A stretch of DNA of 64,000 nt from the NCBI GenBank assembly GCA_963921275.4, contig OZ001293.3:4672001-4736000 (forward strand), written 5' to 3'. This DNA is from an uncultured Hormoscilla sp. Its GTDB lineage: Bacteria; Cyanobacteriota; Cyanobacteriia; Cyanobacteriales; Desertifilaceae. Of this stretch, positions 34,028 to 59,935 are shown in pieces. The notes under the pieces are model-generated. The model searched no databases. It was not told the DNA's origin and saw only the letters and a program-made list of their open reading frames with translations. The first letter of the stretch is position 1, and each line of letters starts with the position of its first letter. The position numbers were made by a program, and so were the translations under genes.

Positions 34028-37006
34028 TCAATTCTGCAAAACCTGCTTTAAATATAGCCCAGTATAAGAGTTGGGATTCTCTGCCACTTCTTCGGGGGTG
34101 CCCACGGCAATTATCTCTCCGCCATTATCGCCCCCTTCTGGTCCTAAGTCAATTACCCAGTCGGCACAGCGAATCACATCTAAGTTATGTTCGATGACAA
34201 TAATCGAATTTCCTTTATCTACTAACCGCTGCAAGACATTTAACAGTTGATGGACATCATAAAAGGATAAACCCGTCGTCGGTTCGTCGATTAAATAGAG
34301 AGTCTTACCCGTGGCCCGACGGGATAACTCTGAGGCTAATTTCATCCGTTGTGCTTCCCCGCCGGAAAGGGTGGGGGCGGGTTGTCCTAACTGTATATAT
34401 CCTAACCCGACATCGACTAATGTTTGCAATTTTTTGGCAGCTTTGGGGATGTTTTCAAAGATTGATAATGCTTCTTCTACTGTCATGTCCAAAACGTCGG
34501 CGATCGCATGTCCTTTGTATTTCACTTGCAGGGTTTCCCGGTTGTATCGCGCCCCTTTACAAACTTCGCATTGTACGTAGACATCGGGCAGGAAGTTCAT
34601 CGAGATGATATTTATCCCTTGTCCGCTACAAGCTTCGCATCGGCCTCCTTTGACGTTAAAGGAAAATTGTCCCGGTTTGTAACCTCTTGCTTTTGCTTCA
34701 ATGGTTTCGGCAAATATGCCTCGAATGAGATCAAATACTCCTGTATAGGTGCCTGGGTTGGAACGGGGCGTTCTGCCAATGGGTGATTGGTCGATCGCGA
34801 TCGCCTTATCGATCGCCTCTATTCCTTGCAACCGCTTCATGTGCTTGGGGAAGGGAACTTTGCGGGTGAGATGATGTTGCAAGGTTGGGTAAAGTAACTC
34901 GTTAATTAAGGTCGATTTTCCCGAACCGGAAACTCCGGTAATGCTGACCAGTTTCCCTAGGGGGATTTCTACATTGATGTGCTTGAGGTTATTTTTGTGG
35001 CAATCTTGCAAACGCAGCGATCGCCCATTTCCTTCTCTTCTGTTCTTGGGCGTTTCAATAACTCGCCTCCCGGACAAATAAGCACCGGTCAGGGACTCTT
35101 CTGATGCTTGCAAATCTTGGAGAGTTCCTTGGACGACAATATTGCCCCCATGTACTCCCGCGCCGGGACCGATATCTACCAGGCGATCTGCTGCACGAAT
35201 GGTTTCTTCATCATGTTCTACTACAATTAAAGTATTGCCCAGATCCCGAAGTTTAATTAGGGTTTGCAGCAGACGCTGATTATCTCGTTGATGCAACCCG
35301 ATACTGGGTTCATCCAAAACATAGAGGACTCCCGTGAGTCCGGCACCAATTTGGGTGGCCAGGCGAATGCGCTGCGCTTCCCCTCCAGATAGGGTGGTGG
35401 CCGCCCGATCGAGTGTCAGGTAATCTAAACCCACGTCCAGGAGAAATCGCAGTCTCGCCGTAATTTCTTTGAGTGCCAATTCCCCAATTTTCGCCTGACG
35501 GGGGGAAAGATTTAGCTTGTTAATCCGTTCCAGACATTCGCCGATGGAAACCTTGGTAAGGTCCTGTATTCTCTCCTGTCCTAATCTTACCGCTAGGCTG
35601 GCGGGTTTGAGTCGCAATCCTTGACATTCGGCACAAGGTTTATTGATTAAATATTGTTCCAGCTTTTGCTTTTGCAATTCGGAACCCATTAACTTATACT
35701 GCCGGTCCAGCATGGGGATAACCCCTTTATACAAACCGTAGTAACCGCGATCTTCTTCTTCATCCACAGCAGTGTAAATGTAGATTTCCTCCTTGCTGCC
35801 ATAGAGGATAATCTCCTCTTGTGCTGCTGTTAGCTGGTTCCAGGATGTTTCCATTTCAAATCCATATTCTTCTGAAAGGCTGTAGAGTAGGGACAGATAA
35901 TAACTACTATCTTTCTCTACCCAAGGGGCGATCGCGCTATAGACGGGGGCATCGGGATAGGGCACGATTAATTCTGGAGAGAAGGTCCGCAAGCTACCCA
36001 AACCGTGACAATTTGGACAGGCCCCGTGGGGAGAATTAAAGGAAAACAGTCGCGGGGATAATTCTTCCATGACCGCCCCATGTTCGGGACAAGCAAAGTT
36101 TTCCGAAAAGACTATCGTTTCGTTCTCGTCTGAGTCCTCATTCAGGATTTCAATAATTGCCAGTCCCGACCCCTGACCCAGACAGGTACTCAAAGAGTCA
36201 TGCAACCGTTCGGTTATTTCCGGTTTCTTGATCAGGCGATCGACTACTATTTCAATGTTGTGAGTCTGATTTTTATTTAACTGGATATTTTCGTCTAGGC
36301 GCAGGACCTCCCCATCCACCCGGACTCTGACGAAACCTTGAGAAGCGAAGGATGAAAGTAACTTCTGGAAACTCCCCTTTTTGCCCCGGACTACCGGGGC
36401 CAGGATTTGGAAACGGGTTCCCTCGGGCAGGGTCATCACCCGATCACACATTTGGTCGATAGTTTCCGGCACAATAGATCGATCGCACTGAGGACAGTGA
36501 GGTTCTCCGACCCGCCCGAACAGTAGTCGGAGATAATCGTATATTTCTGTTACCGTTCCCACAGTCGATCGCGGGTTGTGGGAAGTAGACTTCTGGTCGA
36601 TAGAAATAGCCGGACTTAAACCCTCTATCGCATCTACATCGGGTTTATCCACTTGTCCCAGAAACTGCCGCGCGTAGGCGCTGAGAGATTCCACATAGCG
36701 GCGCTGTCCCTCGGCAAAGATCGTGTCGAAGGCCAGAGAAGATTTCCCCGAACCCGATACTCCTGTAAACACGATCAGGCGATCGCGGGGAAGTTCCAGG
36801 TCAATATTCTTCAGGTTATGCTGTCTGGCACCCCTTATTCTAATTGTATTCTCCCACTGTGTCCCCCCTTTTGTGCGGCTAGCGCACTGCGTATCCTGGG
36901 TAGTGCGAATAGCGCTCCCAGCATATGCAGCATCGGGGGACACAGTGGCGGCAGAATTTTCCTTGGCGGCGGGTAGTCGATCGGAAAGATTCACAAACTC
37001 TGACAT
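34028..37006 (-). CDS. uvrA: Excinuclease ABC subunit A
   Basis: Two GVSGSGKS motifs, LSGGEAQR, Zn fingers. Confidence 0.98.
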   Translation of the reverse strand: MSEFVNLSDRLPAAKENSAATVSPDAAYAGSAIRTTQDTQCASRTKGGTQWENTIRIRGARQHNLKNIDLELPRDRLIVFTGVSGSGKSSLAFDTIFAEGQRRYVESLSAYARQFLGQVDKPDVDAIEGLSPAISIDQKSTSHNPRSTVGTVTEIYDYLRLLFGRVGEPHCPQCDRSIVPETIDQMCDRVMTLPEGTRFQILAPVVRGKKGSFQKLLSSFASQGFVRVRVDGEVLRLDENIQLNKNQTHNIEIVVDRLIKKPEITERLHDSLSTCLGQGSGLAIIEILNEDSDENETIVFSENFACPEHGAVMEELSPRLFSFNSPHGACPNCHGLGSLRTFSPELIVPYPDAPVYSAIAPWVEKDSSYYLSLLYSLSEEYGFEMETSWNQLTAAQEEIILYGSKEEIYIYTAVDEEEDRGYYGLYKGVIPMLDRQYKLMGSELQKQKLEQYLINKPCAECQGLRLKPASLAVRLGQERIQDLTKVSIGECLERINKLNLSPRQAKIGELALKEITARLRFLLDVGLDYLTLDRAATTLSGGEAQRIRLATQIGAGLTGVLYVLDEPSIGLHQRDNQRLLQTLIKLRDLGNTLIVVEHDEETIRAADRLVDIGPGAGVHGGNIVVQGTLQDLQASEESLTGAYLSGRRVIETPKNRREGNGRSLRLQDCHKNNLKHINVEIPLGKLVSITGVSGSGKSTLINELLYPTLQHHLTRKVPFPKHMKRLQGIEAIDKAIAIDQSPIGRTPRSNPGTYTGVFDLIRGIFAETIEAKARGYKPGQFSFNVKGGRCEACSGQGINIISMNFLPDVYVQCEVCKGARYNRETLQVKYKGHAIADVLDMTVEEALSIFENIPKAAKKLQTLVDVGLGYIQLGQPAPTLSGGEAQRMKLASELSRRATGKTLYLIDEPTTGLSFYDVHQLLNVLQRLVDKGNSIIVIEHNLDVIRCADWVIDLGPEGGDNGGEIIAVGTPEEVAENPNSYTGLYLKQVLQN
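36854..36948. repeat. Palindromic micro-element in-frame in the uvrA N-terminus
   Basis: CCACTGTGTCCCCC...GGGGGACACAGTGG with TTTTGTGCGGCTAGCGC and GTAGTGCGAATAGCGCTC cores. Confidence 0.8.
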
Positions 37007-37050
37007 AACTATGTGGTTTCTTTATTCATTTTCCAATATACCACAACTGA

Positions 37051-37404
37051 TGGGATTCGGCAATCGCGATACGGCCCGCCAGGGGTTCAAAGAGCGACCA
37101 GGGGACACCGCCAGTATCTGCTATTAGCGGACTACCAGTCTGACGTTAACTGTCAGAAGTATCTGCCGCCTACCGAGACCGCGAGAGATGAACGCGGATG
37201 TCGATTCTAAATACAGCCCGGATGGGAAAATTTAAGGGCGAACGCGCAATTCTTGAGTATTGTCGATATCTCTGTCAGAGCTCTTGTCCCAGGGAACATA
37301 CGGCGCAGGAGACATCGAGTCGAGATATCTCGCCAGGGCAGCCAGTTAAGATTAACATCGGAGAGTACGTCCAAGCATCGGCTAGCTTAAAAACACAGAC
37401 ATGA
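37051..37404 (+). pseudogene. glgP: C-terminal remnant of glycogen phosphorylase
   Basis: YLLLADYQS..NCQ and MSILNTARMGKF; interrupted by a palindromic element near 37264-37317. Confidence 0.65.
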
Positions 37405-37994
37405 ACAATCAACCAAGTAAACTGATAGTGTTGACAGGACCGAGTGGAGTCGGCAAAGGAACATTAGTGTATCGGCTGCTGGAACGTCATCCACAACTAT
37501 TTCTGTCAGTTTCCATGACTACCCGTTCCCCCCGTCCTTGTGAAATTGAGGAGAAACATTATTACTTTGTCAGTCCCAGGGAGTTTGAGCAAAAGGTGGA
37601 GGCGTCCGAACTGCTGGAATGGGCTGAATATGCCGGTAACTACTACGGAACTCCCCGGCGAGTGGTAGAGGAGTTACTCCGACAAGGCAACTCAGTCCTG
37701 CTAGAAATAGAACTAGAAGGGGCCAGACAGATCGCCGCTAGTTTTCCAGAAGCCCTGAGAATCTTTATTTTACCGCCATCAATGTCCGAGTTAGAAAGAC
37801 GCCTGCGCCGCCGGTCCAGCGAAGACGATGGGGCGATCGCCCGACGCTTGGAACGGGCGATCGTCGAAATTGCCGCCGCCGATGAATTTAACCTGCAGAT
37901 TATCAACGACGATCTAGAAACGACCATAGCGGAGATCGAAGCCGTTCTCCACCAGAATTGCGTAGGACGGGCGTCCAGCCTGTCCGAGACGTAG
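37401..37994 (+). CDS. gmk: Guanylate kinase
   Basis: GPSGVGKGT, SVSMTTRSPR, GNYYGTP. Confidence 0.95.
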   Translation: MNNQPSKLIVLTGPSGVGKGTLVYRLLERHPQLFLSVSMTTRSPRPCEIEEKHYYFVSPREFEQKVEASELLEWAEYAGNYYGTPRRVVEELLRQGNSVLLEIELEGARQIAASFPEALRIFILPPSMSELERRLRRRSSEDDGAIARRLERAIVEIAAADEFNLQIINDDLETTIAEIEAVLHQNCVGRASSLSET

Positions 37995-38189
37995 CGGGCG
38001 TCCCGCCTGTCCGTTATACCCGTCAAGCTAGGCCCAAAGCATACAAAAACACCTTTGGGCAACCTTACCCAAAGGCGAAAGATGTTGATTTGAGAAGTGT
38101 TCGGGAATTATATAGCCCTTAACAGTTTTTTGATGTATTTCCTCTGGACTCCCGAAACCAAGAGAGTATCAACAAAACCCACAAGGCTT

Positions 38190-38234
38190 TCGATGTCTCT
38201 GGGGAGCTCTACTCGCACTACCCCAGAGACATCG
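38190..38234. repeat. Palindromic micro-element downstream of psaJ
   Basis: TCGATGTCTCTGGGG-AGCTCTACTCGCACTA-CCCCAGAGACATCGA. Confidence 0.8.
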
Positions 38235-38245
38235 ATGGCTAATTC

Positions 38246-38371
38246 CTATAGGGGATGGAACAGCAGGTCGGGGAAAAAGCGGTTAAACTCAATCAGAATA
38301 CCAGCCGTGATCGTCATCCAAACTGCCAGAATCACTGGCGCGAGGGAAAGATACTTGAGTAAATCCTGCAT
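38246..38371 (-). CDS. psaJ: Photosystem I subunit IX (not in the ORF track)
   Basis: Hand translation [41 protein letters not shown]; directly downstream of psaF. Confidence 0.95.
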
Positions 38372-38404
38372 GATTTATTCTCCAAAAAATACCACAAACA
38401 GAGA

Positions 38405-38899
38405 CTAGCGGGGGGAAATGGGGATTTCGTTGTCAGAGGCAAACATTTCACCAGAGACAATGTCTTTGAAAGCTGCTAAAGGCCACATAGGACCGGTTGC
38501 CACGCACTTGAGTGCCAAAGATACATCAATGATGATTTCTTTTTCTTCAGGGTTCTTCTCTGAGCGAATTGCCATCAGATAGGCCCGACCGACCCAACCA
38601 ATCCAACCGGTGATGTAGAGGAACAGAATGCTGGGAATCAGGAAATCACCAGCATGAGAGAAACGCCCATCCACAATCAGGTGGGGGAGTCCATCTTCGC
38701 CGCAGAGAGCTTGAGCATAACGATCGAACCGCGCCGCCCCGGAATTTGGGTCAGCGGTAGTATTCAGAGCATCTTCGGCCCGATCCTGAAACTCCTCTGA
38801 TTGACTGCACGGTACCAAACCGGCAATATCGGCAGTAGCCGCTGGGACGCAACCAACCCAGAGACTAACGATCAATAGTAGAGCAAACAATCGTCGCAT
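38405..38899 (-). CDS. psaF: Photosystem I subunit III
   Basis: [42 protein letters not shown]. Confidence 0.97.
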
Positions 38900-39027
38900 G
38901 GAATTGTTTCCTTTTGTTAAGAAATACCAACAAGGTGTGCTATGGAAAGGAATCATACTCGATCGCGGGATCGAAGTAAAGTTTAACTTTGTACAACAGC
39001 CAATCCATTCCCATAAATTACCAGATA

Positions 39028-40068
39028 ATGGCTACTATTCTAGCAATTGAAACCAGTTGTGACGAAACGGCGGTGGCAATCGTAAACAATCGTAACGTTT
39101 TAAGTAGCATCGTGGGACTGCAAAGTTATTTGCACCGGCCGTATGGTGGAGTAGTGCCGGAGGTGGCGTCGCGCCGTCACCTGGAAACGATCAATGGGGC
39201 GATCGCCCAAGGGTTGCAAGCAGCAGATCTAGACTGGTCTAGTATAGATGGAGTGGCAGCAACCTGCGCGCCAGGGTTGGTGGGGGCCCTGTTGGTGGGG
39301 TTAACGGCGGCGAAAACTCTGGCAATGGTGCATCAAAAGCCGTTTCTGGGAGTCCACCATCTGGAAGGACATATCTATGCTTCCTATCTGAATACGCCAG
39401 AGTTAACACCACCGTTCTTGTGTCTGCTGGTTTCTGGCGGTCACACCAGCTTGATTTACGTGCGCGATTGTGGTATGTATGAAACAATTGGGCAAACCCG
39501 GGATGATGCGGCCGGGGAAGCTTTTGATAAGGTCGCGCGGTTATTGGATTTGGGATATCCCGGCGGTCCGGCGATCGACTCCCTGGCCCGCGAGGGCAAT
39601 GGGCAAGCCTTTCGGCTAGCCGAAGGAAAGGTATCTCTGACAACCGGCGGCTATCATCCCTATGATTCCAGCTTTAGTGGCTTAAAGACAGCAGTATTGC
39701 GGTTGGTGCAGCAATTAAAGCAAGAGTCGGAGGAGTTGCCAGTTGCAGACATAGCGGCCAGCTTTCAGCATACTGTGGCCAAAGCACTAACCAAAAGGGC
39801 GATCGCCGCTGCCCTAGACTACGGACTGAATACCATTGCCGTGGGTGGGGGAGTGGCAGCTAATAGTGGTCTGCGCTATCATTTACAAGCTGCTGGGGCA
39901 AGTCATAATTTGCGGGTCTTGTTTCCACCCCGAGCATTATGTACTGATAATGCGGCGATGATTGCCTGTGCCGCAGCAGATCATCTCCAGCGCGGACATC
40001 AATCTCCCTTGACTCTGTCAGCCCAGTCCCGGATGGCGATCGGCACCGTCATGGACTTGTACCGATGA
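39028..40068 (+). CDS. tsaD: tRNA N6-threonylcarbamoyltransferase
   Basis: [37 protein letters not shown]. Confidence 0.97.
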
Positions 40069-40124
40069 CGGAAAACCAAAAATGTTATCAGCAAAAATGT
40101 CTGCCACAAAGTTGGCAGCGGCTT

Positions 40125-40302
40125 CGATATCTTCTGGGATCTCGATGTCTCCCGGTCGCTCGATGTCCCCCGGGGCGAGGTGTCTCCTGAGAGCGCTAAT
40201 CGCACAAAAGGGGAGACACCTCGCGCTAATCGCACAAAAGGGGGACATCGTAGTCGCACAACTCCGGGGAGACATCGTACCCGCACAAAAGAGAAGATAT
40301 CG
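40125..40302. repeat. Four palindromic micro-elements nested inside one another
   Basis: Concentric arms CGATATCTTC/GAAGATATCG, CGATGTCTCCC/GGGAGACATCG, CGATGTCCCC/GGGGACATCG, GAGGTGTCTCC/GGAGACACCTC. Confidence 0.85.
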
Positions 40303-40523
40303 CTGACTGACCGCATGACCGCGTCCTTGAGGTCAAAACCATGAAATTTGCGGTTATGAACCTCGCCATTGAGGTTTTGGACATGAAATTTTTGGTTATG
40401 AAGCTGACCCGCTGTTTTCCCCGAGAGCGCTACTGGCACAAAAGGGGGAACACAGAAGGTAAACGGGGTTTGGTGTAATCTCAAATGTACGTGATTGGGT
40501 CGTAGCCAAAAAGGAAAAAAGCA

Positions 40524-41147
40524 ATGAACGATACTACGGCATTCTTGTCGGGATGCGCGATCGCAGCAGTGGCAACCTTTGTCATCATGGATAAAGGGAA
40601 TAATCTCGATTGCGCCAACCGTGGCCTTGGCAGCAATGTGCCTTCTATGAATCAAACCCTGCCCCCCACTCCTCTGCCACCACCGCCATCGGTTAATCCA
40701 CAACAGCCCCAGGCCGATAGCCAATTACAACAGCAACTGACGGAAAATCAACAGCTAAAATCTCAGCTGCAGCAGCAAGGTACTGAGGTGGAACAGCTAA
40801 AATCTCAGCTGGATAAGCAATGGATGGAAACTCAACAGCTGCTGCTGCAAATGCAAGCCCAGCAGGGTAGGCCAAAAGCAGCGGATTCATCTTTGCCTGA
40901 TTCTCGCACGATCGTCCTCTGGGTGCTGGGAGCCTCTGTGCTTGTCCTGGGCATTGGTGGTAGCATCATTATTATAGTCGTGCTACTGGCTATGTTTGCG
41001 CAATCACAGCAGCGTTATTACCCCACGGCTCATGTGGTTCATCCCTTTAATGTAAGTTCTTCGCCGCGCCGCGTCTATGAACGCCAGTCTAGGTACTTAT
41101 TCCCCTATACTAAAGTTAGAGGAACCTCCGACCTGGATGATGATTAA
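40524..41147 (+). CDS. Membrane-anchored Gln-rich coiled-coil hypothetical protein
   Basis: N-terminal hydrophobic segment, Pro/Gln-rich coiled coil, second TM segment. Confidence 0.65.
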   Translation: MNDTTAFLSGCAIAAVATFVIMDKGNNLDCANRGLGSNVPSMNQTLPPTPLPPPPSVNPQQPQADSQLQQQLTENQQLKSQLQQQGTEVEQLKSQLDKQWMETQQLLLQMQAQQGRPKAADSSLPDSRTIVLWVLGASVLVLGIGGSIIIIVVLLAMFAQSQQRYYPTAHVVHPFNVSSSPRRVYERQSRYLFPYTKVRGTSDLDDD

Positions 41148-42600: not shown

Positions 42601-44229
42601 TATCCGATTTCCAGATAATTGCCGTCACGCCAAGATAACTAATAGGGCAGAAAAAGCTCAGATAGGGATATGGGTGCATCTCAATGCATGCGCTTTGGCA
42701 ATAATTATCGCTAATTGCTAATTGCTCCCTTGCATTTAGTAAACTTGAAAGTCTCGCACAGAGCTAGTTTTCTCAATCTATAAATAATGATATCGTGATG
42801 ATCTATAATCGGCAATATAAAATCTCAAATAATATTATTTATTTTCTGCAAATCACCAGATGCTCCCTTCCTCTACAGTCCACAAGCGTATTTTTGTTGC
42901 TGTCATCGAATTATCATCCTTTGTTTGCACATAAATGCGATCGCTCGTTTCCTATAGGATATCATATCATGGTATAGCAAGTCTAAATCATTTGTGCAAA
43001 CATTTTGGGGTATAGCGCGAGTTTCCCGCTCCCCTCTCCCTGCTCCCTGCTCTGAGCTTATTGCACGACTCCTGCACGACTCACTATAGCTATATTAGGG
43101 GGCGGTTTCAGGACAATTATATTGATGACCGCTCTCCCGAGGGGAAAGGTGAGTGTATTCTGGGTAGTGGGAGTATGATGTCTCCCGGGAGACATCATAC
43201 TCCCAGAATACACCGAGAGGGAGTATGTCCAGAGTAGTATAATAGATAAGGCAAGCAAAAACTTTGAAAATAACCTCCTGTCGAACCCGCGCATAACTGA
43301 ATAATTACTGACTCCCATGGCAGAACATCTTGATGCTATACTAGAGCAGCAAGCTCTTCCCCTACTAATGCAAGCAGGTGAAAGAGCAATGCTAGCTCGA
43401 CTGCGCTCTGGCAATATCACCAGACATGATATTGAGTTCTATGTTTCGACGAACGGGGGACTAAAAAAGCCCAGAAAGAAGCAATACAGTTCCGAGGAGT
43501 TACCGAAAGGGATTTATTTCATCCCGACCTTATCCGCCAAGATCCAGAATTGTTTCCTGATAATTGAAGAGAGGAATAATCAATTAAAAATTAATAATTA
43601 ATAATTATCAAATTGAAAATAAGGCTCTCAGCTTTTCGACCTATGCAATTTAAATGCGCGACAGCTTATGAGTTTTGCTCACCTGAGACTTAACAACATC
43701 AAACAGGAGCAATCCTTAGTAGAATACCTCGTCGAGTCTTTTGACTTTAGGAAATGGGAAGAAATTGGCAAGCTTGAAATCGCTGGCAAAAAAATCTAAT
43801 TTTCGACCAGCAAAGATATGGAGCGATCACGCGCTCTTCCCCCCAGAAATATACGGTCTGGATGAAACGAGAACAGATTATTAAATCAAAATATCGAGAT
43901 TACGGTTGGGATCCATCATTGGGCAGTATCGTTTATTAAGCAAGATTCATTTCCAGAATATCATCCCTCCTCTTTCTTTCCCACTCGAAATCCCAAGAAT
44001 ATAGTAACAGATAAAGTAGAGAAAAAGCGAGCGATTGCCTATTAATTTTTGACAACAGCTATTAGGATGGGGCGGTTTCAGGACAATTGACGATCGCCCT
44101 GGTAAGAGCGGTAGTTTATTATCCTGAGGAAAGGTAAGGACTAAAGTCCTTACTACGAACGATTTGCTTCGATGCCTCCCGAGGGAAGGTAAGGACTTTA
44201 GTCCTTACTACGAACGATTTGCTTCGATG

Positions 44230-44813: not shown

Positions 44814-45031
44814 AAAATTTGAGACTCTTTTGATATCATCTTGACCATATTATAGCTGAAAATCTTATCCCCTTCGATGTCCCCCAGAGGGGACGCGCTA
44901 TTCGCACTGCGCAGAGCACATCGCAGAGACATCGGGATCTCCTAACAGGGGAATGTCCTTAATAAGAAGGCCCGGGTAAGGACTTTAGTCCTTACTACGA
45001 ACGGACGATATTCTCTATTTTCTATTCTCAA

Positions 45032-46069
45032 TTAACACATGGCCAGCAGAGTCACTTCCCAAACAAGTCGGGGTTGAGCATAACTGAGCAGGTATTTGCG
45101 AGCTGTTTCAAGCTGTTGCAGGACATCTGATCGCGTAGCGTGCGCGCAGCGCAATCGACAGTCCTGTTGCCAGTAGCTATGCTGTAAATAATCAACTAAC
45201 CAGAGTTGAGCTTCTGTGTCAAGGTTTTGGTTAATTTCCTTTGCTAATTCTAAAGCATCTCGGAGAGTATTGGGCGGTGTCTCGTGGGTAGTGCGATCGT
45301 GCAGGACACGTAGCCCGGTGCGCGCAGTGCGAGTAGCGCTCCCACGAGACACCGGAAGATGGCGCAGTCGGGATAGCAGTTCTGCTGGTATAGCCTGGAG
45401 TTGGGCAAAACAGGCGATCGCCTCTCCAGGACTCCCCTGTGCCATTGCCATTATCTGGTCTTGCTGTAAGATCTCTTCATAACCCAATTGTCGCAATATT
45501 TGACTCATTTGTGCTTTAGGGAGCCGATAAAAAGGAATTCTAGCACATCGCGATCGAATTGTCGGCAATAAGTCAGACGAGGCTAGCAAAATGATGGTAG
45601 CACTTCCTGGTTCTTCCAATGTTTTGAGTAAACTATTAGCAGCTGCTTCTGCCATTGTGGGAGCTTGTTCTATTACTACCACATGTCGCGGTGCTTTTAG
45701 AGGCGATCGGCTGATAAAACTGGCAATTTCTCGCACTTGCTCAATTCTAATCTGGGGAAGCGCTTTCCGTTTTAAACCCGCAGCAGCAGCTTCTTGAGCA
45801 GACAATAGTTGACCCTGATGCTGATAGGTTGGTTCCACCCACAATACATCAGGATGATTGCCATCTCGTACAAGTTTCTGGATTTTGGTATGCTCTGAAC
45901 TGGGAGCACGATCGCAAAACATGGCTTCGATAAAACACTTGACTGCTATACTCTTGCCCACACCATCGGGACCCGCAAATAAATAAGCTGGGGCCAGGCG
46001 CTGACGGGCGATCGCTTCCCTTAAAAACTTTACCGCCTGTTCTTGCCCGATCACTCTCTCAAAAGGCAT
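45032..46069 (-). CDS. holB: DNA polymerase III delta' subunit, with two in-frame micro-insertions
   Basis: AYLFAGPDGVGKS, NHPD, AANSLLKTLEEP, LLPTIRSRC. Confidence 0.92.
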   Translation of the reverse strand: MPFERVIGQEQAVKFLREAIARQRLAPAYLFAGPDGVGKSIAVKCFIEAMFCDRAPSSEHTKIQKLVRDGNHPDVLWVEPTYQHQGQLLSAQEAAAAGLKRKALPQIRIEQVREIASFISRSPLKAPRHVVVIEQAPTMAEAAANSLLKTLEEPGSATIILLASSDLLPTIRSRCARIPFYRLPKAQMSQILRQLGYEEILQQDQIMAMAQGSPGEAIACFAQLQAIPAELLSRLRHLPVSRGSATRTARTGLRVLHDRTTHETPPNTLRDALELAKEINQNLDTEAQLWLVDYLQHSYWQQDCRLRCAHATRSDVLQQLETARKYLLSYAQPRLVWEVTLLAMC

Positions 46070-46103: not shown

Positions 46104-46871
46104 TTAATTTTCGATAATTTGCCATTTAGTTAAGTATTCTGTTATAATGGTTTGGATATGGGCTTGGACTTGGGACTGGGAACCGCTAGCATCAACTCGG
46201 ATAATGCGATCTTGTTCTTTTGCCAATTGAGCAAATCCCCGATATACTCGGCGGTGAAACTCCAAATCAGCTTGCTCCATCCGGTCAGCTTTACCCCGTT
46301 GGCGCGTCCTCAAAAGACCCACCTCCACATCTAAATCTAACCACAAAGTTAGATCGCTGTGCAGACCAAAGCTAGCCATTTGATTGAGTTGCTCGATTTT
46401 ACTCAGACTCAGACCGCGACCATAACCCTGATAGGCTAGAGTCGAATCAGTGAAGCGATCGCACAAAACGATCGTCCCCTTCGCCATCTGAGGCTTGATG
46501 AATTCTTCAACATGTTGAGCTCTGTCGGCTGCATATAACAACAGTTCTGTCATCCCTCCTAGGTCAGAGTCGATGTCTCTGCGATGTGCTCTGCGCGCGC
46601 TATTCGCACTGCGCAGAGCACATCGGGGGTAGTGCGAATTCGGTGTCCCCCCTTTTGTGCTCCTAGCGCTCTCGGGGGACACCGAAAGCTTTTTAGAGAC
46701 ATCGAAGGCGAGCAAAATCTGGCGCAGTTTCTCTCCTAAGGGCGTACCTCCAGGTTCTCTGGTGACCGCAACGCGATCGGTCCGGCAGCGCAACCACTGG
46801 TACAGCAGCTGGATCTGAGTTGTCTTACCACTACCTTCGGTTCCCTCAAAGACGATCAGTTTTCCCTGCAT
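46104..46871 (-). CDS. tmk: Thymidylate kinase, with a 44-codon in-frame palindromic insertion
   Basis: FEGTEGSGKTTQ, TREPGGT, ELLLYAADRAQH, DRFTDST.AYQGYGR. Confidence 0.93.
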   Translation of the reverse strand: MQGKLIVFEGTEGSGKTTQIQLLYQWLRCRTDRVAVTREPGGTPLGEKLRQILLAFDVSKKLSVSPESARSTKGGTPNSHYPRCALRSANSARRAHRRDIDSDLGGMTELLLYAADRAQHVEEFIKPQMAKGTIVLCDRFTDSTLAYQGYGRGLSLSKIEQLNQMASFGLHSDLTLWLDLDVEVGLLRTRQRGKADRMEQADLEFHRRVYRGFAQLAKEQDRIIRVDASGSQSQVQAHIQTIITEYLTKWQIIEN

Positions 46872-47914: not shown

Positions 47915-49770
47915 CTATTTTAGCATTCCCATCGAGAGCCGCACTTCTGCTATTACCTCGTCCGATGTTATTCCGATGGATCTGGCGATCGTATTTGCTG
48001 TCTTTTGTCTATCTCCTGTGAGCATTTTCACTTTTAATCCCATCTGCCGCAACTCTTCTATTGTTGTTTTGGCATCTGGCCTTAGTTGGTCCCTTACTGC
48101 TATCAATCCCCCTATTCTACCCTCTACTGCTACATATACTATTGTTTTACTCAACTCTGCCCAGCCTTGGGCCATTTTTTCCTCTTTTTTAACATCAATC
48201 TCATGCTTTGTCAAGCATTCTCTAGTTCCCAGAAGCACCAATTGACCATCCACCCAAGCCGATACTCCCAGTCCCGATACTGTGCAAAAGTCCTGGGCTC
48301 TTGGGATGGGCAAGTCTTGGGCGATCGCGGCTTGGGTGATGGCCTGAGCCAAAGGATAATTGCTGCCAGTTTCTACCGCTGCTGCTATTTGTAACAGAGA
48401 TTGTCGATCGTAGCCTGTACCAATGGGTAGAGAATCTGTGACAGTAGGCTTTCCAGTAGTGAGGGTGCCAGTTTTATCGAACGCCACTAGATCCAGCTGA
48501 TGAACCAGTTCCAGCACGTCACCCCCCTTGATTAAAATTTCCCGTTGGGCTCCCAGGCCAGTACCCACCAGGATCGCCGTCGGAGTGGCCAGTCCTAAAG
48601 CACAGGGACAGGCCACCACCAAAACCGCGATCGCTAGCTTTAAGCTCAACAACAGGGGAGTTTGATGAATCAGCTGGTGATGTCCCATTGTTGGCATCAA
48701 GACATGAGGCCAGATCTGAGTTCCCACAAAATACCAGAACCCGAAAGTCAGTGCTGCCACTGTCATCACTCCATAAGCAAAGTATCCAGCTACCCTATCT
48801 GCCAATTGCTGCACGGGGGCCTTTCTTGTTTGCGCCTCTTCTACCAGGGCGATAATCTGAGCCACAGTAGTATTTTGACCAGTACGGGTGGCCCGCATGG
48901 CAATTACTCCCGACTGGTTCATGGTTCCTGCTGCCACTGCATCTCCCGGTTTTTTTCCTACGGGGACCGATTCTCCCGTGAGCATTGATTCATCTACCGC
49001 AGTTTCTCCCGCCACCACTAACCCATCGGAGGGTATGTTTTCCCCTGGCAACACCCGCAAATACTCACCTACTTTCACATCAAAAGCGGGAATGTCTACT
49101 GATTTTTGGATCTCACCAGTTTCGCTAGGAATCAGATGTGTTATTTTCGGTCTGAGTGCTAGCAAGGATTTTAAGGAAACTGCTGCCTGAGTTTTCGCCT
49201 GTTGTTCCAGGGTACGTCCCAGAAGAATGAAACCCAGCAGCATCACCGGTTCATCAAAGAAGCATTCCCAACCCAGTTGGGGGAATAGCAAGGCTATGCA
49301 GCTAGCCATGTAAGCAGATAGAGTACCCAAACCCACCAGGGTATTCATATTGGGGGCATTTTGCCAGAGTCCCCGCCAGCCATCTATTAATATAGTACGT
49401 CCGGGCAGCAGCAAGGCCAAGGTTGCCAGTCCCCAGTGAAACCAGATATTACTCAGAACAGAGGCATGACCAAAGAAATGACCCATCCTCGATAGGAGGA
49501 TTAGCAAGCCAGCAATTACTAGATTTTTAATTTGTTGCCGAATTTATTCCCGCTGTTGCTGGTCATCCTGGGTTCGGTGTTAATGGGGAGAACGGGGCTG
49601 AGTGGGAAAACCCGCCTTTGTCAACTGCGCTGCCAGGGCCGTGCGATCGACTGTGCCCGCTGCACATTCCACTGCTGCCACAGCTGTTACCAGATTTACA
49701 CAAGCGGAAGATGAGACTTGGTAGAGGGGGAAGACAGGTAGACAAAAAAGATTCTTCAACGAAAGAATAA
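47915..49770 (-). pseudogene. Cu-type P1B ATPase, frameshifted at the 5' end and truncated at the 3' end
   Basis: DESMLTGE, VACPCALGLATP, DKTGTLT, MLTGD; GDGxND and final TM helices missing; HMA remnant (ACVNLVT.VA) upstream. Confidence 0.85.
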
Positions 49771-52765: not shown

Positions 52766-52848
52766 GCAATTGAAAATTGAAAATTGGGAAACCTATTGAA
52801 AAAAAGGCTCTCAGCTTTTATCCTTAGGCAATGAAAATGGGTGACATC

Positions 52849-52998: not shown

Positions 52999-53180
52999 GC
53001 CCGCCACTAAAGGAAAAGAGGCAAGCTATCAGCTCAGGGTAGGCAAATCCAGCTCAAAGGAGTAAAATAGCAGAGAATGAGGGCAAACGCCTATGGCGAT
53101 TACGGCTCTCCTCACTGCCAAGCACAGGTCTCCAGAGATAGGTTGATTGCAGTCAGCAAAAAAATGGTAGGAAATCAGCG

Positions 53181-55625
53181 ATGTTTGAATATTTTACAGA
53201 ACAAGCGATAAAGGTAATAATGCTCGCTCAGGAAGAGGCCCGTCGCCTGGGACATAACTTCGTAGGGACGGAGCAAATCCTCCTGGGTTTAATTGGTGAA
53301 GGGACGGGAATAGCAGCAAAAGTGCTGGGGGAACAGGGTGTAAATCTGAAGGATGTCCGGACGGAGGTAGAAAAAATTATAGGTCGGGGATCGGGGTTCA
53401 CGCCAGTGGAAATTCCGTTTACGCCAAGGGTAAAGCGGATTTTCGAGTCATCCCTGAACGAAGCACGCCAATTGGGACATAATTACATAGGCACGGAACA
53501 CCTGCTGCTGGGACTAATTCAGGACCGGGATGGGGTAGCAGCGAAGGTGTTGCAAAATATGGGGGTTGACCCCAACGCGATGCGCACCCAAGTGATTCGC
53601 ATGCTGGGAGAAGAAGCAGCGGTAAGCGTGGGAGGGAGTTCAAACAATGGCAAAGTCCCCACCCTCGATGAGTTTGGCACGAATCTGACGAAACTGGCAG
53701 GACAGGGGAAACTGGACCCGGTGGTGGGTCGGGAGCCGGAAATTGAACGGGTAATCCAAATTCTGGGTCGCCGCACGAAGAATAATCCAGTGCTGATCGG
53801 AGAACCGGGGGTGGGGAAAACGGCGATCGCGGAAGGACTGGCCCATCGGATTGTCAACAAGAATGTGCCGGAAATCCTAGAAAATAAGCAAATAATTAGC
53901 CTGGAACTGGGAATGCTAGTGGCAGGAACCAGGTTCCGAGGAGAATTTGAAGAGCGGTTGAAGAAAATTATCGAGGAAGTCAGATCGTCGGATAACATTA
54001 TCCTGGTAATTGATGAAATCCATACGATCATAGGGGCGGGCTCGGTAGAAGGAAGCCTGGATGCGGCGAACATCCTCAAGCCAGCATTGGCGAGAGGCGA
54101 AATGCAATGTATTGGGGCCACGACGATGGATGAGTACCGCAAGTATATCGAGCGGGATGCGGCCCTGGAACGTCGGTTCCAACCAGTGAAAGTGGGAGAA
54201 CCCAGCGTGGAAGAGACGATCGAGATTCTCTACGGCCTGCGATCGGCCTACGAACAGCATCACCAACTGAAAATCTCCGATGAAGCGATCGTGGCCGCTG
54301 CTAACCTCTCGGACCGCTATATCTCGGACCGGTTCTTGCCGGATAAGGCGATCGACTTGGTGGATGAAGCAGGTTCCCGGGTCCGGCTGTTCAATTCTAA
54401 ACTGCCGCTAGAGGTGAAGGAACAGAAGCGACAGTTGCGAGAAGTGATTAAGGAAAAAGAGGTGGCGGTCAAGGACCAAGACTTTGATAAGGCGGGAAAA
54501 CTGCGCGATCGGGAGTTAGCAATTAAAGAGGAGATCCAAATCGCTACTAGCAATAAAATAAATATTGCTCCGGTGGTCAGCGCAGAAGACATCGCCCAGA
54601 TCGTATCTTCCTGGACGGGAGTGCCAGTGCTCAAGCTGACGGAATCGGAATCGGAACTGCTGCTGCACATCGAGGATACCCTGCATCAGCGCCTGATCGG
54701 TCAAGAAGAAGCAGTGACGGCTGTATCTCGCGCTATTCGTCGGGCCCGGGTAGGTCTGAAAAACCCCAACCGCCCGATCGCCAGTTTCATCTTTTCGGGA
54801 CCGACGGGTGTGGGCAAAACGGAACTGACAAAAGCTTTAGCAGCCTATTTCTTCGGTTCGGAAGAGGCAATGGTTCGCATAGATATGTCAGAATACATGG
54901 AACGTCACACGGTATCCAAACTGATCGGTGCGCCTCCTGGATTTGTAGGTTATCAGGAAGGGGGTCAACTGACAGAAGCGGTGCGCCGCCGTCCCTACAC
55001 TGTGGTCCTATTCGATGAAATTGAAAAAGCTCACCCGGATGTCTTTAACCTGATGCTGCAAATTTTTGAAGACGGTCGCCTGACGGATGCGAAGGGTCGG
55101 ACTGTGGACTTCAAAAATACCCTGCTGATTATGACCTCTAACATCGGATCCAAGGTGATTGAAAAAGGTGGGGGAGGTTTAGGATTCGAGTTTGAGGAAA
55201 ATAGCGCTGATGCTCAGTATAACCGGATTCGCACTCTGGTAAATGAGGAACTGAAGCAGTATTTCCGCCCCGAGTTCCTCAACCGCTTGGATGAGATTAT
55301 CGTCTTCCGTCAGTTGACCAAAGAACAGGTGAAAGATATCTCGGAGATCATGCTGCGGGAAGTCTTCGGTCGCCTCACGGAACAGGGTATTACTTTAGAA
55401 GTTACCGATACTTTCAAAGAACTCTTGGTCAAGGAGGGATACAACCCCAGCTATGGTGCGCGACCCCTGCGACGGGCGATTATGCGCTTGTTGGAAGATG
55501 TCCTGGCTGAAGAGTTGCTCTCCGGTCGCATCTCTGAGGGCGATCGGGCGATCGTAGATGTTGACGAAGAGGGTAAAGTTAAGGTAACCCGTGCAGAGAA
55601 GAAGCAGTTGCTCTCAGTTAGTTAA
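53181..55625 (+). CDS. clpC: ATP-dependent Clp protease ATP-binding subunit
   Basis: Clp-N repeats, [20 protein letters not shown]-type linker. Confidence 0.96.
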
Positions 55626-55840
55626 TGCCAACCATACACCACCCTCACCCCCTCACAGGGGTAGGTTTTTTACATTTCGGTTCGTTTGAGGGGGTGAGGG
55701 GGTGAGGGGGTGCTCACAGGAGTAGGTTTTTTATTTTTGCTTAATTTTTGTTTTACCAAAAGTCGGAAAGTGGGGGAGTAGTATCAACAAAAGTCAACAC
55801 TTGTTCATAATTTATTAATCAAATTTACCAAGATTAACTA

Positions 55841-56852
55841 ACTCAAGTTGCGACCTATAAAAATTGGATACAAAAAGCTATGATAAAGAGAATTATTTTC
55901 AACTCTAATCCCTTAGATGTAACAGCATGAATTGACTTGGGAAACAAATTGGTGATTCGACTAAAACAGGTTTCAACTTGTTTTCTTGTTACTTTTTGTA
56001 TATATTCAAAACAAGAAGATTCTTTTCTTTTTGAGTTCTTTTTTCGCAAAGGTTTTAACATTATACTTGACGACTCTTTTAGTAAATCCTCTAATTGATA
56101 ATCATTATAAGCTTTATCTCCATAAACTATTGAATTTGATGGTAAGTCAAAGCCAAAAGATTGCAAAACTTTAAAATCATTATAACTACCAGGATCTAGA
56201 TAAAATTCTATTAGCTTTCCATTTTTGTTTACCAACATATGAACTCTTAATCCATAAAAATAACGTTTTTTACTGGCAATATACCCTCGATATTCTTCCT
56301 TGTTATAAATTTGGCATCTATCAATCCTAATATTATCACATACTGGCACCGGGAAACTATCAAGAATATATTCTTGACCCGGATTGAGCTCTTTAAATGT
56401 TTGAGCTATAACTTGGAAGAAAAACATCCAAATTGGTTCGTCAATATTGTGTAATCGACGATTGAACCTACTTTTACTTAACATATTTTTTATATACTTG
56501 TGTTCGACCATAAATTGACAAGAGCGATCGTGGTGTCCTCCGAAAAAATATGCAGCAACTAATCCGACTGTCATCACTTCGGCATTGTTCATTTTTACTT
56601 GTGGATCTTCTTTTATATTTAACGCTTTTAGTAGCTCGTCACAAAGAACAAAAATTGTTGTAATCATATCTTCCATCATCTACATCCCCCAGCAATTAAC
56701 TATTATTTTAGTACATTATAACCTATAAACAGCCAACCCGCCGTATAGCACAAAAAAAATATAATTTTGTATCAAAAGCTACGAAATATCCCAAATATCT
56801 GTAAAGTCTAAGTGGGTAATTCATATTTTTTTTAATAGGTCGCAACTTAGGT
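55841..56852 (-). mobile_element. IS982-family insertion sequence, copy 2 (1012 bp)
   Basis: Same TIRs as copy 1; 6-bp TSD TAACTA. Confidence 0.92.
55855..56679 (-). CDS. IS982-family DDE transposase
   Basis: 274 aa; differs from copy 1 at about 6 residues. Confidence 0.9.
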   Translation of the reverse strand: MMEDMITTIFVLCDELLKALNIKEDPQVKMNNAEVMTVGLVAAYFFGGHHDRSCQFMVEHKYIKNMLSKSRFNRRLHNIDEPIWMFFFQVIAQTFKELNPGQEYILDSFPVPVCDNIRIDRCQIYNKEEYRGYIASKKRYFYGLRVHMLVNKNGKLIEFYLDPGSYNDFKVLQSFGFDLPSNSIVYGDKAYNDYQLEDLLKESSSIMLKPLRKKNSKRKESSCFEYIQKVTRKQVETCFSRITNLFPKSIHAVTSKGLELKIILFIIAFCIQFL

Positions 56853-56853
56853 T

Positions 56854-56887
56854 AACTACGAACTACGAACTACGAACTACGAACTAC
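56854..56887 (+). repeat. Heptamer tandem repeat (AACTACG), about 5 copies
   Basis: Directly visible next to the IS end. Confidence 0.8.
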
Positions 56888-57158
56888 CCCTGTAAGGTGA
56901 GGGGGTGAGGGGGTGAAGAGGATTCCTAGTTAAAATTCGTAGGCTGGGTTTCCGAACGAAACCCAGCAGTTACCTGTAAAGTTGGGTTGAGCCTAAGCTC
57001 AACCCAACCTACGATGATTATAAATAATTGTTACAAAAAAATCGAGATTTTGCGGAAAATGTAGGGTTAAATCTGAATATACAAGTATAAGGATTAAATC
57101 AGTCGATCCTGGGGTTGGGTGCAGAACCAAAGAAAATTACTACAAGAGCAACCCTGAT

Positions 57159-58973
57159 ATGGCTTGAATTAACGGTACGCAAAGGGACGATCTGCTCCCG
57201 GGAACGTCGGAGCAGGACGAGATTCGAGGTAGAGCCGGTAACGAATGCGCTGCGCGCACGCTACGCGGACGGCTTTTGGGCGATCGCGGAAATGACGTGC
57301 TCTATGGCAATCGAGGCCGGGATACCTTAACAGGAGGGGATGGGAGTGACATCTTCGTGCTCAGCGGCGGTCGCGATCGGATTACCGACTTTACTGACGG
57401 TCAGGACTTGATAGGATTACCAGGTCGTGTCAGCTTCGATCGGCTACAGATATCTGCTGGCACCGGGGCGAATGCTGGGAACACGATTATCTCCTTGGGA
57501 CGCTTTCAGTTAGCAGTCTTGGAGGGGGTGAGCAGCAGCCAGATCGACGCCGCTGATTTCACAAACGATCTGACACCGATATCGGAACCGACGCCGACAG
57601 TACCGCCATCAAATGGCAATTTTAACATTGAATTCGACTATCGCTTTGACAGCAGCGGATTTTTCAATGACCCCGCCCGCCGGGCGGCATTAGAAGCTGC
57701 TGCTGATATCTGGGAGGGCTTTATCCAAGACGAGTTTCCCAATGTTCCAGCAGGGATTGAATTTACTGTAGAAAATCCTTCTGTGTCAGGCCGGGAAGAA
57801 AGGATTGTCTTGAACTCTGAAATTGACGATTTGCTGATTTTCGTAGGTGTACGTCCATTGCCTGGCAGCACTCTGGGACAAGCTGGACCTGATGGTGTGG
57901 ATGCTGCTGGAACTGTTTTCTCCAACCGCATCAATGGCAGTGATTTTCAGCCTTGGGTGGGAGAGTTGACCTTCGATCCGGATGCGAATTGGTTTTTTGA
58001 CTTCACGCCCAATACAGATGGGGACATTCCTTTCGGGCAAAGCGATTTTATTAGTACGGCTTTGCATGAAATCGGGCATATTTTGGACATTGGTACTGCT
58101 GACATTTTCGAGTAAATCGGTGCAGGGAGGGCTTTTGATGGTCCCAATGCTCTGAATGTGAATGGGGGCCAACCTATTCCTTTGGAACGAGATTTGTCTC
58201 ATATCCAAGAGGGTTTTTTGAATGGTACTGTCTTGCTGGACCCCTCAATCACGAACGGCACCCGCATATTGCCGACTCAGGTTGATTTGGCTTTGTTGGC
58301 GGATATTGGCTATGAAATATCCGACTTTACAGCTCAAGGTGAAACGCCCCCGATCGCATCTTTCGGGGATGACCAGATCATCGCTACAATGTTGGCTGAC
58401 ACGATCGATGGTTTAGGTGGTGGCGACTAAATTCAAGGCGATCGGGGGAACGATCGGCTGAATGGAGGTTCTGGAAACGATCGGCTGTTTGGTCAAGCAG
58501 GTAACGATACCCTGAATGGGGACGCTGGGGATGACCAACTTGTGGGAAATGAGGGTAATGACATTCTCAATGATGGCTCTAATAATGATAACTTCTTCGG
58601 TGGCACGGGTAACGATACCCTGAATGGCGATGCGGGGAATGACTTCCTAAGAGGAGAAGCAGGGGATGATTTGCTCAATGGTGGTGCTGGCGATGATAAC
58701 CTTTTTGGTGATGCGGGCCGGGATAAATTCTTCTTTGGTGCTAACAATGGTGAAGACACTATTACCGACTTTGACATTGCTACTGAAAGGATCCAGATAG
58801 CATCTGGTCTGGGTTTTGCTACGGGTGCAGATGTGCTGGCTACTCTCTCTAGGACTTTCATTAATACTTCTGTCTTCACCCTGAGTCCGGGGAACTCGAT
58901 AGAGGTATTTCATGAGGATGTATCTAACATAAATAATACTCCTCTGACAGCAGCAAATTTCGTTATTGTCTGA
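57159..58973 (+). pseudogene. RTX Ca-binding zinc metalloprotease (HExxH) with several stops and a frameshift
   Basis: ATG GCT TGA at the start, FNIEFDYRFD, HEIGHILDIG, GGxGND nonapeptides; stops at 58113 and 58428. Confidence 0.82.
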
Positions 58974-59501
58974 TCTGTTTCATCCGCTAGCCCGCCGGGG
59001 GTTCAAACCCCCGGCTAATAGCTAAAGTCGGTTTAAAACCGACTAAAAATATTGTCATTTTAGTTTATGAGTAGGGTGGGCACCGCCCACCAGACAGCGG
59101 GTTCCTCTCGTTCCCAGTTTCAAGCTGGGAACGAATTCTAGAGGCAGAGCCTCCAGTTTAACCGAGATAGAGGGAAAATGGACAAATTTCATAAATTATA
59201 CCCTCGTTCCCAGTCAGCCAGTAGAACTTCCAGTAGAGATTGGATATTTTTCTCAAGTCGAAGTGAAACGAGGATCTTTTCAGAAAGCGGTCACAAATAC
59301 AAATAACTGATATTGTCGCGATCGCCCCCAAATTCCACGCAGTTATGTTACCATATTGTCCGATCGGTAAAAGCATTAGGTGTATCTAACTTTACCCGAT
59401 CGCTGGAGGCGATCAGGAATTGGCAGAAAAAGGAATTAAACAGATAAAGATCGTTCTGCTATGATTATAAAATAAATTAAGTGGGATTGCCAGAGTTAAT
59501 G

Positions 59502-59935
59502 GGGTGTGGTCAAAAGTAGTTGATATCCTGGCCAAAAGGATTGCGCTACCGGTGTCTCCTGGGTAGTACGAATAGTGCTCCCAGGAGACGCCGAGCACAC
59601 GGCTACGCCTACGCGATCGACGCTGACAGATTACATCGTAGCGAACGTAATACTAAATTTGCGTGTTACACGTAATCAAGCATAATGCCGGGCGGGAGCC
59701 TTCATGAATGATTACATCGTAGCGAACGTAATACTAAATTGTGTATTACACGTAATCAAGCATAATACCAAGCCGGGCGGGAGCCTTGATGGATGATTAC
59801 ATCGTAGCGAACGTAATACTAAATTGCGTGTTACACGTAATCAAGCATAATACCAAGCCGGGCGGGAGCCGCTTATCAACCAGTGAAATCGTCATAATTT
59901 TACCTTTTCTTTACCAACTGGTTTTGACCACACCC
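59502..59935. mobile_element. 434-bp MITE with GGGTGTGGTCAAAA ends and a perfect 9-bp TSD
   Basis: GGGTGTGGTCAAAAGTAGTTGATA ... TACCAACTGGTTTTGACCACACCC; TSD GAGTTAATG (59493-59501, 59936-59944). Confidence 0.9.
59629..59870 (+). repeat. Three tandem 81-85-nt structured repeats inside the MITE
   Basis: Units start at 59629, 59710 and 59795: GATTACATCGTAGCGAACGTAATACTAAATT...TTACACGTAATCAAGCATAAT...GCCGGGCGGGAGCC. Confidence 0.9.

Follow-up and report, generated by a model that had tools for sequence, protein, structure and literature searches.

Hairpins of 45 nucleotides with a conserved loop form a genus-restricted, probably mobile repeat family in Hormoscilla

The stretch of DNA analysed here (the window) comprises 64,000 nucleotides (nt), positions 4,672,001 to 4,736,000 of contig OZ001293.3 in the assembly of an uncultured Hormoscilla sp. 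(GCA_963921275.4), and carries multiple copies of a short palindrome, the hairpin family, whose arms differ from copy to copy while staying complementary to one another and whose loop is conserved. We conclude, with a probability of roughly 0.85, that the family is genus-restricted, non-autonomous, replicative mobile DNA with a conserved loop, and we propose that it depends on a factor acting in trans. The window belongs to a genome, G000, of 7.03 Mb with 47% G+C and 4738 HIP1 octamers, which mark it as cyanobacterial, and was compared with four congeners (G001-G004), one genome of the sister genus (G007), three genomes from two other genera (G005, G006 and G011) and contigs of another sponge metagenome run (X7).

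The family is recognised by a core of 15 nt, GAGCGCTAWTCGCAC, which at up to two mismatches matches the window 10 times against an expectation of 0.17, a number that none of 100 shuffles reached; at the same tolerance it occurs 486-521 times in the genome, where the copies group into about 450 clusters. At the window sites the design reads as a left arm such as (T)TCGATGTCTCCnGG, the core GAGCGCTAnTCGCAC, TAC or AAAA, and then the reverse complement of the arm. The conserved loop of 16 nt consists of AGCGCTAnTCGCAC followed by TA, and in a second variant the core is followed by AAAA and the stem is shorter. The limits of the hairpin were taken from the simple copies of G000, defined as those of the 314 TA-type loop copies that retain 11 or more of the 14 stem pairs (n = 207). 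In these, pairs 1-14 are of Watson-Crick type in 86-99%, pair 15 in 54% and pair 16 in 26%; as pairing collapses past pair 14, the hairpin is a 14-base-pair (bp) stem with a 16-nt loop, giving a unit of 44 nt (14 + 16 + 14), and the commonest insert is 45 nt long. Apart from one free base, the loop positions are 90-99% conserved.

The initial annotation of the window had stated that the arms always remain self-complementary, and both the pairing frequencies and the variation between copies bear this out. The 207 simple copies contain 108 distinct arms, and at several stem positions the copies use two or three different Watson-Crick pairs (pair 4, for example, is T-A in 91 copies, G-C in 63 and C-G in 46). 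In a set of 75 copies, in which three stem pairs were fixed by the search pattern used for collection, 161 cells had changed on both sides of the stem, compared to 58.9 +/- 7.9 after shuffling (0 of 500 shuffles reached the observed number) and 27-65 in slid controls. The same 75 copies, 74 from the genomes of relatives and one from the window, served to train a covariance model. Folded as single-stranded DNA, the units give z-scores of -5 to -10; G-T cells amount to at most 2% per stem pair in the 207 copies and are not more frequent than A-C cells, which gives no hint that wobble pairs are tolerated as in RNA. Stem mismatches are handed on unchanged within subfamilies, for example CGATGCACTCGGG with CCCTCGCGCATCG, which indicates that new copies are replicas of their donors and are not born perfect. 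It follows that stem pairing comes with the donor copy, and the simplest account of its upkeep is selection among copies for being able to move. In the very small sample of four ungapped pairs of orthologous copies, all five stem changes are one-sided and either break or make a pair. About 13 palindromes without a core are also listed genome-wide.

Ten sites of one design had been described in the window, and nine of them are members of the family; the exception, near 37264, shows inverted arms but neither a core nor a covariance-model match. The sites are as follows.

36856..36945, minus strand: a pair of nested units totalling 90 nt (2 x 45), in frame and in sense orientation in the N-terminal extension of uvrA; covariance-model match at 36882-36936; not in G001, G003, G004 or X7.
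37260..37335, no strand assigned: degenerate palindrome without core in the uvrA/gmk spacer, of unconfirmed membership; inverted arms, no covariance-model match; relatives have other small insertions here.
38188..38236, plus strand: simple unit with a perfect stem, intergenic between the convergent gmk and psaF; covariance model 69.7 bits; DNA fold -17.3 kcal/mol, z -8.2.
40125..40300, plus strand: four-deep nested array 3' of tsaD; arms match in nested order; covariance-model match at 40172-40226; relatives differ.
40406..40460, plus strand: intergenic unit of the AAAA-loop variant; covariance-model match; in G004 its loop holds an additional 21-nt hairpin of GTTCCCA type.
43146..43221, no strand assigned: coreless palindrome with arms of the family type, one of the ~13 listed genome-wide; weak covariance-model match.
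44869..44935, plus strand: composite intergenic unit 3' of holB; covariance-model match; 83 more nt within it in G003 and G004.
45267..45353, minus strand: unit with extra material in its loop, in frame and in sense orientation in holB (residues ~240-265), 81 nt more than in G001; covariance-model match.
46572..46706, minus strand: three units (outer, inner co-oriented and inner inverted), 135 nt or 45 codons, in frame in tmk; empty sites in relatives; covariance-model matches at 46576 and 46636.
59545..59599, minus strand: simple intergenic unit; covariance model 54.9 bits; DNA fold z -6.9.

Covariance-model matches in the window lie at 36882, 38185, 40172, 40406, 44869, 45270-45360, 46576, 46636 and 59545, with weak extra matches at 3634 and 9150. 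Gene placement by Pfam puts copies inside uvrA, holB and tmk, and the others in the uvrA/gmk and gmk/psaF spacers, after tsaD, after holB and in one more spacer. The earlier idea that genes are colonised in frame is borne out, and to call them essential is fair for tmk and holB; uvrA serves repair, and the remaining sites in the window lie between genes. A search of positions 36000-60500 against Rfam 15 (4227 families, E <= 1) returned only a sub-threshold match to Acido-Lenti-1 (23 bits) at 58995, off every unit; as far as Rfam extends, the family matches none that has been described.

Mobility is documented by empty sites, which were recovered when tmk, holB and uvrA were aligned with their orthologues, as the initial annotation had anticipated in calling these palindromes mobile elements. 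The tmk gene of G000 has 135 extra nt (45 codons) between the regions encoding REPGGT and ELLLYAADR, and this site is uninterrupted in G001, G002 and G004 as well as in seven genomes of other genera. G003 presents an older, different state of the same insertion, and at the inner inverted unit both G003 and an X7 contig are short by exactly 39 nt. The 90 nt in uvrA are found only in G000; the start codon and the N-terminal peptide are conserved in G001, G003 and G004, and an X7 contig also lacks the 90 nt. The holB segment is missing from G001 and from G005, G006 and G011, a distribution that places the insertion in the ancestor of G000, G002, G003 and G004. Turnover is equally evident beyond the window: in the ~1.39 Mb of compared G000-G004 alignment, 12 of the 29 simple G000 copies in aligned blocks are missing from G004, which also carries private copies. 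Exact matches to the loop number 154 in G000, 86 in G004, 54 in G003, 49 in G002 and 22 in G001, the counts for the relatives being probably too low given their draft assemblies.

Losses of 39 nt that leave 6 nt behind were seen at two loci, namely the inner tmk unit in G003 and X7 and a locus at G000:C1:822674. At the latter the most distant congener, G001, is without the entire 45 nt, G000 and G003 have the full unit, and G002 and G004 retain six bases from the left end of the unit. What persists of the left arm, at both loci, is its outer five bases, while the remainder of the arm, the loop and the right arm are gone. The indels of 39 and 43 nt might also be explained by targets in which TTC or TTCGATG was present before insertion; at 822674, which is one of these indels, the absence of all 45 nt from the most distant congener speaks against this. 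On these alignments the 39-nt cases are better read as secondary deletions, which could be either excisions made by an enzyme or slippage promoted by the hairpin.

The form of the insertions was read from 20 single-unit indels between G000 and G004, to which the outer units of tmk and uvrA were added (22 events; flanks counted by eye). Thirteen of the 20 indels measure 45 nt and the others 39, 41, 43, 44, 44, 46 and 48 nt. The usual 45-nt insert opens with two bases, in most cases TT, and continues with the left arm (14 nt), the loop (16 nt) and all but the last base of the right arm (13 nt); in the main class, seven events of the form TTCG...^GA (^ marking the junction) and one variant, the next target base, a G and usually part of GA, completes the stem. 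The right flank begins with G in 12 of the 22 events and the left flank ends in CC in eight. No direct repeats were found at the flanks of the ~22 polymorphic insertions, which means that the target is not duplicated. Overlaps between insert and target are one-sided only (G, GA, GCA or TCGA), 1-4 nt long and on the 3' side of the loop, and the 5' end is constant; units of the CTGTG type are inserted whole, as 44 nt. These junctions argue against the suggestion that the target is copied in inverted form during insertion, because in the main class the 5' end is TTC regardless of the third flank base, with pairing in only one of seven events; the insertion of whole arms in the CTGTG-type events and the inherited mismatches of the subfamilies also count against it. 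In length, all 11 coding events of G000 are multiples of three, which they needed to be in order to score as coding; as 45 nt is also the length of four out of nine events that, by a crude ORF test, look non-coding, the 15-codon length appears to belong to the main subfamily itself and not merely to reflect survival.

The loops of existing copies are a preferred and orientation-specific target for insertion. At a single position of the host loop, 24 co-oriented and two inverted units are nested among the 207 copies, compared to none of either orientation at control positions 300 nt away. The nested junction reads ...GAGC-T-(unit)-TAnTCGCAC..., with the 3' half of the host loop intact. A host-loop variant that might offer a ready TC target, GAGCTCTA, is rare (three of 207), so that the nested junction is probably made by the insertion itself.

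In the genomes examined the family is found only in the genus that record titles give as Hormoscilla. A 17-nt loop pattern has no match in 400 other sampled genomes of the phylum and none in the sister-genus genome, and the covariance model, applied to the best 93 candidates per genome, finds no member among 60 further genomes belonging to the order. Named genome records, when scanned, gave at least 74 loci, and all among the matches listed carry the title Hormoscilla sp. Full-text literature searching turned up no description of the family, and a comparative genomics study of these symbionts (PMC6520454) contains neither 'palindrom' nor 'mobile' nor 'pseudogene', its three uses of 'repeat' concerning other things.

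Copies inside genes are under-represented yet common. With a genic copy defined as one in an open reading frame (ORF) of at least 200 amino acids that extends at least 30 amino acids to each side, 102 of 467 clusters (22%) are genic, against 43% of random positions; 68 are in sense and 25 in antisense orientation. The use of frames is skewed, as 43 of 93 copies are read in one frame that encodes an S(M/V)SPGSAxRTTQETS-like peptide, this commonest reading being a stretch rich in Ser, Pro, Gly and Thr, followed by 19 antisense copies with an RCxxGSAxSAPRxHR-like and 18 with an FDVSGERYSHY-like peptide. Five of the six frames are open; the sixth, an antisense frame, contains a stop, and a sense frame is closed only when the free loop base gives TAA or TAG. 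With so few stops among the frames, stops alone would not produce the skew, which is most simply explained if harmless, hydrophilic segments are selected for. Since 45 nt equal 15 codons and five frames are open, insertions in genes can survive as an extra peptide. An AlphaFold2 model of Tmk (alignment of 12 rows; mean predicted local distance difference test score, pLDDT, 75) has pLDDT values below 50 at residues 59-101, which correspond to the insertion, and is confident apart from these residues and 195-200; the inserted segment is thus predicted to be disordered. In a ZipN/ARC6-like division gene with DnaJ, Arm_PDR, ARC6 and IMS domains (G000:C1:2804013-2806496; L176), four to five hairpin-derived segments lie in the linker before the membrane span.

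As to how such a unit could move, a trans-acting factor would recognise the conserved loop on any stable stem of single-stranded nucleic acid, be it DNA or RNA. Only copies that still pair would be able to found new copies, which would lead to the covariation of the stems. The ragged ends and the target overlaps of 1-4 nt suggest copying by a polymerase rather than a precise cut-and-paste recombinase, and we tentatively favour, at somewhat short of even odds, a polymerase-based copy step that is target-primed or template-switching and possibly uses one of the reverse transcriptases of the genome; an RNA route through these abundant enzymes is possible. A bolder version, speculative and on balance unlikely, would make the 45-nt hairpin the substrate of an undescribed bacterial mobilisation route, either as the smallest retro-element, a loop-tagged RNA that hijacks the reverse transcriptases of an intron-rich genome, or through a new loop-specific enzyme acting on single-stranded DNA, with a codon-tuned length that would let it reside in essential genes and a 39-nt excision that leaves a scar of two codons.

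The search for a mobiliser bears on these ideas. In line with the initial annotation, which had noted that no transposase is attached, no gene is attached to the hairpins, and the genes that lie between two hairpins are housekeeping-like by their first 60 translated residues, with the four orientation classes equally frequent. A master copy was sought by comparing the 1.5-kb flanks all against all and rejected, as this gave only repeats of the group II intron type and a decayed ISL3-type element with a passenger hairpin; Rfam applied to eight flank-repeat loci identified one intron and one tRNA. The ISL3-type insertion sequence (IS) is ~1.4 kb long with a broken transposase frame and a 45-nt hairpin in mid-element (G000:C1:5390150-5391535 and about seven more copies), and the passenger explains why one group of copies has identical arms. 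The genome shows a weak, irregular GC skew, and the strand bias of the copies shifts near 3.9 Mb, which does not match the skew.

Of the explanations that compete with the proposed loop-directed copying, movement of REP/REPIN-type hairpins on single-stranded DNA by a RAYT (Y1 HUH) transposase has the most obvious model. The hairpin shape, the lack of target duplication and the clustering and nesting recall REPINs (Bertels and Rainey 2011; PMC3116915), GTAG occurs in the hairpin loop on the reverse strand, and the stronger of the two Y1_Tnp matches in G000, at 69 bits, is a typical RAYT, present as a single copy at G000:C1:241711-242259 (L065 1417-1965). The initial annotation had proposed a search for a HUH/RAYT gene flanked by the same hairpins; instead, this gene is flanked on both sides by its own tandem GTAG-tagged REP, GCCCGCCTGCGCGGGC, which has about 105 copies in the genome, and the covariance model detects no family hairpin in the surroundings of seven Y1 loci (22,204 nt of sequence from the six genomes G000-G005). 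Its distribution does not follow that of the family either: an orthologue at 84% exists only in G003, and the carriers G001, G002 and G004 have homologues of only 37-40%, as has the non-carrier G005. The separate REP, the hairpin-free Y1 loci and the mismatched orthologues place the family outside REP/RAYT, and ragged insert ends and 22% of clusters inside genes add to a case that makes this explanation very unlikely; the family may have a distinct mobility system, the RAYT/REP link being the one that is excluded. Less probable still is a function in place, with the hairpins kept there by selection as structured RNAs or protein-binding sites (terminators, stabilisers or regulatory motifs) and not being mobile. 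Several window copies lie between convergent genes and the folds are very stable, but presence and absence among close relatives, and above all the empty sites, contradict a fixed function, about one fifth of the copies are inside ORFs, no T-run follows the stem, Rfam offers no match, and the few stem changes between orthologous copies are one-sided.

The two remaining explanations concern the manner of copying. In the retro-element scenario, a hairpin RNA of 45 nt is copied into nicked targets by the reverse transcriptase of a group II intron, the 3' end of the target pairing with the last 1-4 bases of the RNA, and an RNA intermediate has reportedly been proposed by Elhai in 2008 for the SDR repeats of Nostoc. 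The genome is rich in the enzyme (87 RVT_1 matches in G000, most in frames of 486-609 amino acids, typical of group II intron proteins), and the one-sided overlaps and constant 5' end speak for it. Against this stand the lack of a consistent link to reverse-transcriptase loci, of an excess of G-T over A-C cells in the stems and of an A-tail or other 3' mark, together with a few events in the opposite sense, and we consider the scenario possible but rather doubtful. The best-scoring RVT_1 match, incidentally, lies in a frame of only 279 amino acids (C1:611211-611831) and may be another kind of reverse transcriptase. Alternatively, no dedicated enzyme would be involved, with template switching or gene conversion between palindromes spreading the hairpins and hairpin-promoted deletion removing them. 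Variable junctions with short target overlaps, the stereotyped 39-nt losses at two loci and the ~13 coreless palindromes fit such a process, which we nevertheless deem improbable: the asymmetric loop, conserved at 90-99% per position, and the 12:1 orientation bias of nesting point to sequence-specific recognition, and nothing alike is found in other palindrome-rich genomes.

Several observations weigh against our conclusion that the family is mobile DNA served by a factor in trans. No mobiliser was found, and no protein gene is consistently flanked by hairpins; hairpins lie near only two to three of 12 reverse-transcriptase loci, and identical intron copies occur without them. The target rule is based on ~22 events read by eye, one third of which do not fit CC^GA, and the arithmetic of the nested junctions differs from that of the un-nested ones, so that no single rule fits both. 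Covariance-model scoring covered the best 150 candidates in G000 and the best 93 in each of the 60 other genomes of the order, which limits the counts, and the ORF-based coding calls are crude. Lastly, the sense bias might stem from selection acting on the encoded peptide and is thus uninformative on mechanism.

The closest known systems include the SDR1-8 repeats of Nostoc punctiforme and relatives; they are said to have been described by Elhai and colleagues in 2008 as stem-loops of 21-27 nt with compensatory changes, self-nesting and recent mobility and without an attached gene, and SDR5 reportedly lands in HIP1-core sites. The hairpin family resembles them in being a very small cyanobacterial repeat with compensated stem-loops, self-nesting, no attached gene, recent mobility and a mobiliser that is not known, and differs by its size of 44-45 nt with a 14-bp stem and by a loop motif with no match in the 400 genomes of the phylum and 60 of the order, the distinction being drawn from descriptions of the SDRs and not from their consensus sequences. 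A companion family of 24 nt in G000 lands in CGAT^CG, a HIP1-core site, as is said of SDR5. In elements derived from IS200/IS605, such as PATEs, the two end hairpins differ from each other, the ends are exact and a TnpA is required. The hairpin family shares with them hairpin ends, insertion beside a short specific sequence and the absence of target duplication; unlike PATEs it has a single hairpin and ragged ends, and no IS200/IS605 tnpA is present beyond the two Y1 matches, which lack these hairpins. DDE-type MITEs differ in that the hairpin family has neither terminal inverted repeats matching a resident IS nor target duplications, the only IS link being the ISL3 element with its passenger.

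SDRs are reported only from Nostocaceae (PMC5861425). REP and REPIN elements are short palindromic repeats with hundreds of copies that keep their pairing, cluster and insert into each other without target duplication (PMC3116915), and REPs tagged with GTAG or CGTC are reported (PMC3733652). The family is like them in being hundreds of short palindromes with maintained pairing, mutual insertion and no target duplication. Whereas REPs lie for the most part outside genes, have their GTAG at the base of the stem and border a RAYT gene, 22% of the clusters here are intragenic, the loop is conserved and the RAYT accompanies another REP; moreover, the unit is one hairpin and a REPIN is a doublet of REPs. 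Rickettsia palindromic elements (RPEs) lie in frame in unrelated housekeeping genes, where they are read as a tolerated extra peptide, and have no known mobiliser; they have ~100-150 nt, encode a conserved peptide, occur in obligate intracellular alphaproteobacteria and are mostly old (PMC10969869). In-frame palindromes in housekeeping genes that are read as extra peptide are common to both, but the hairpin family is 45 nt long, polymorphic between sister species and nests. In sum it behaves like REP/REPIN, SDR and RPE repeats, and lacks the RAYT link, the extragenic location, the 21-27 nt size, the terminal inverted repeats and target duplications, and the Rfam match by which it might be assigned to one of the known classes.

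With hundreds of copies, sister-genome sites that are filled, empty or scarred, a sharply defined loop for recognition and a stem of which only pairing is required, the hairpin family makes the question of what mobilises very small palindromes without a RAYT or an IS testable. It also represents a route of protein evolution, in which mostly hydrophilic segments of 15 codons enter loops and linkers of Tmk, HolB, UvrA and the ZipN/ARC6-like protein in an uncultured sponge symbiont. At their sites the hairpins break short-read assemblies, and they inflate or split gene calls.

Other small repeats accompany the hairpin family in the window and in the genome.

45133..45157, minus strand: separate unit of 23-24 nt in frame in holB, of another family; a gap in G001-G004 and, among the genomes compared, only in G000.

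The 24-nt family (TGCGCTGCGCGCACGCTACGCGAT type) has a 14-nt core found ~208 times, inserts at CGAT^CG with repetition of CGAT and also occurs at G000:C1 4397063 and 5916288, among other places; its GCGCTnnnCGCAC is similar to the 45-nt family's loop. A hairpin family of 21-24 nt, GTTCCCA(N8-12)TGGGAAC, has 109 copies in G000 and lands in the loops of 45-nt units in relatives (in G004 at 40440 and in the G003 tmk insert, L002). A 22-nt family, ATGGCTGCGCCACGCTGCGCGA, with ~66 copies in G000, accounts for many private insertions of G002 (against window positions 37309, 38156, 44101, 44494 and 44770). A small palindromic repeat consisting of GGTAAGGACTnnAGTCCTTAC and then TACGAACG is present at 44127-44188 and 44960-45003 of the window and is polymorphic relative to G003 and X7. 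The 31,420-nt contig C3 of G000, with 17.6% G+C against 47% for the chromosome and no HIP1, is probably foreign to the organism. Finally, the P-type ATPase gene at 47915-49507 of the window (minus strand) has a break at 47937/47938, where ~430-470 nt of G001-G004 are missing and the G000 copy looks truncated; the missing piece holds a 45-nt unit in G003 and G004.

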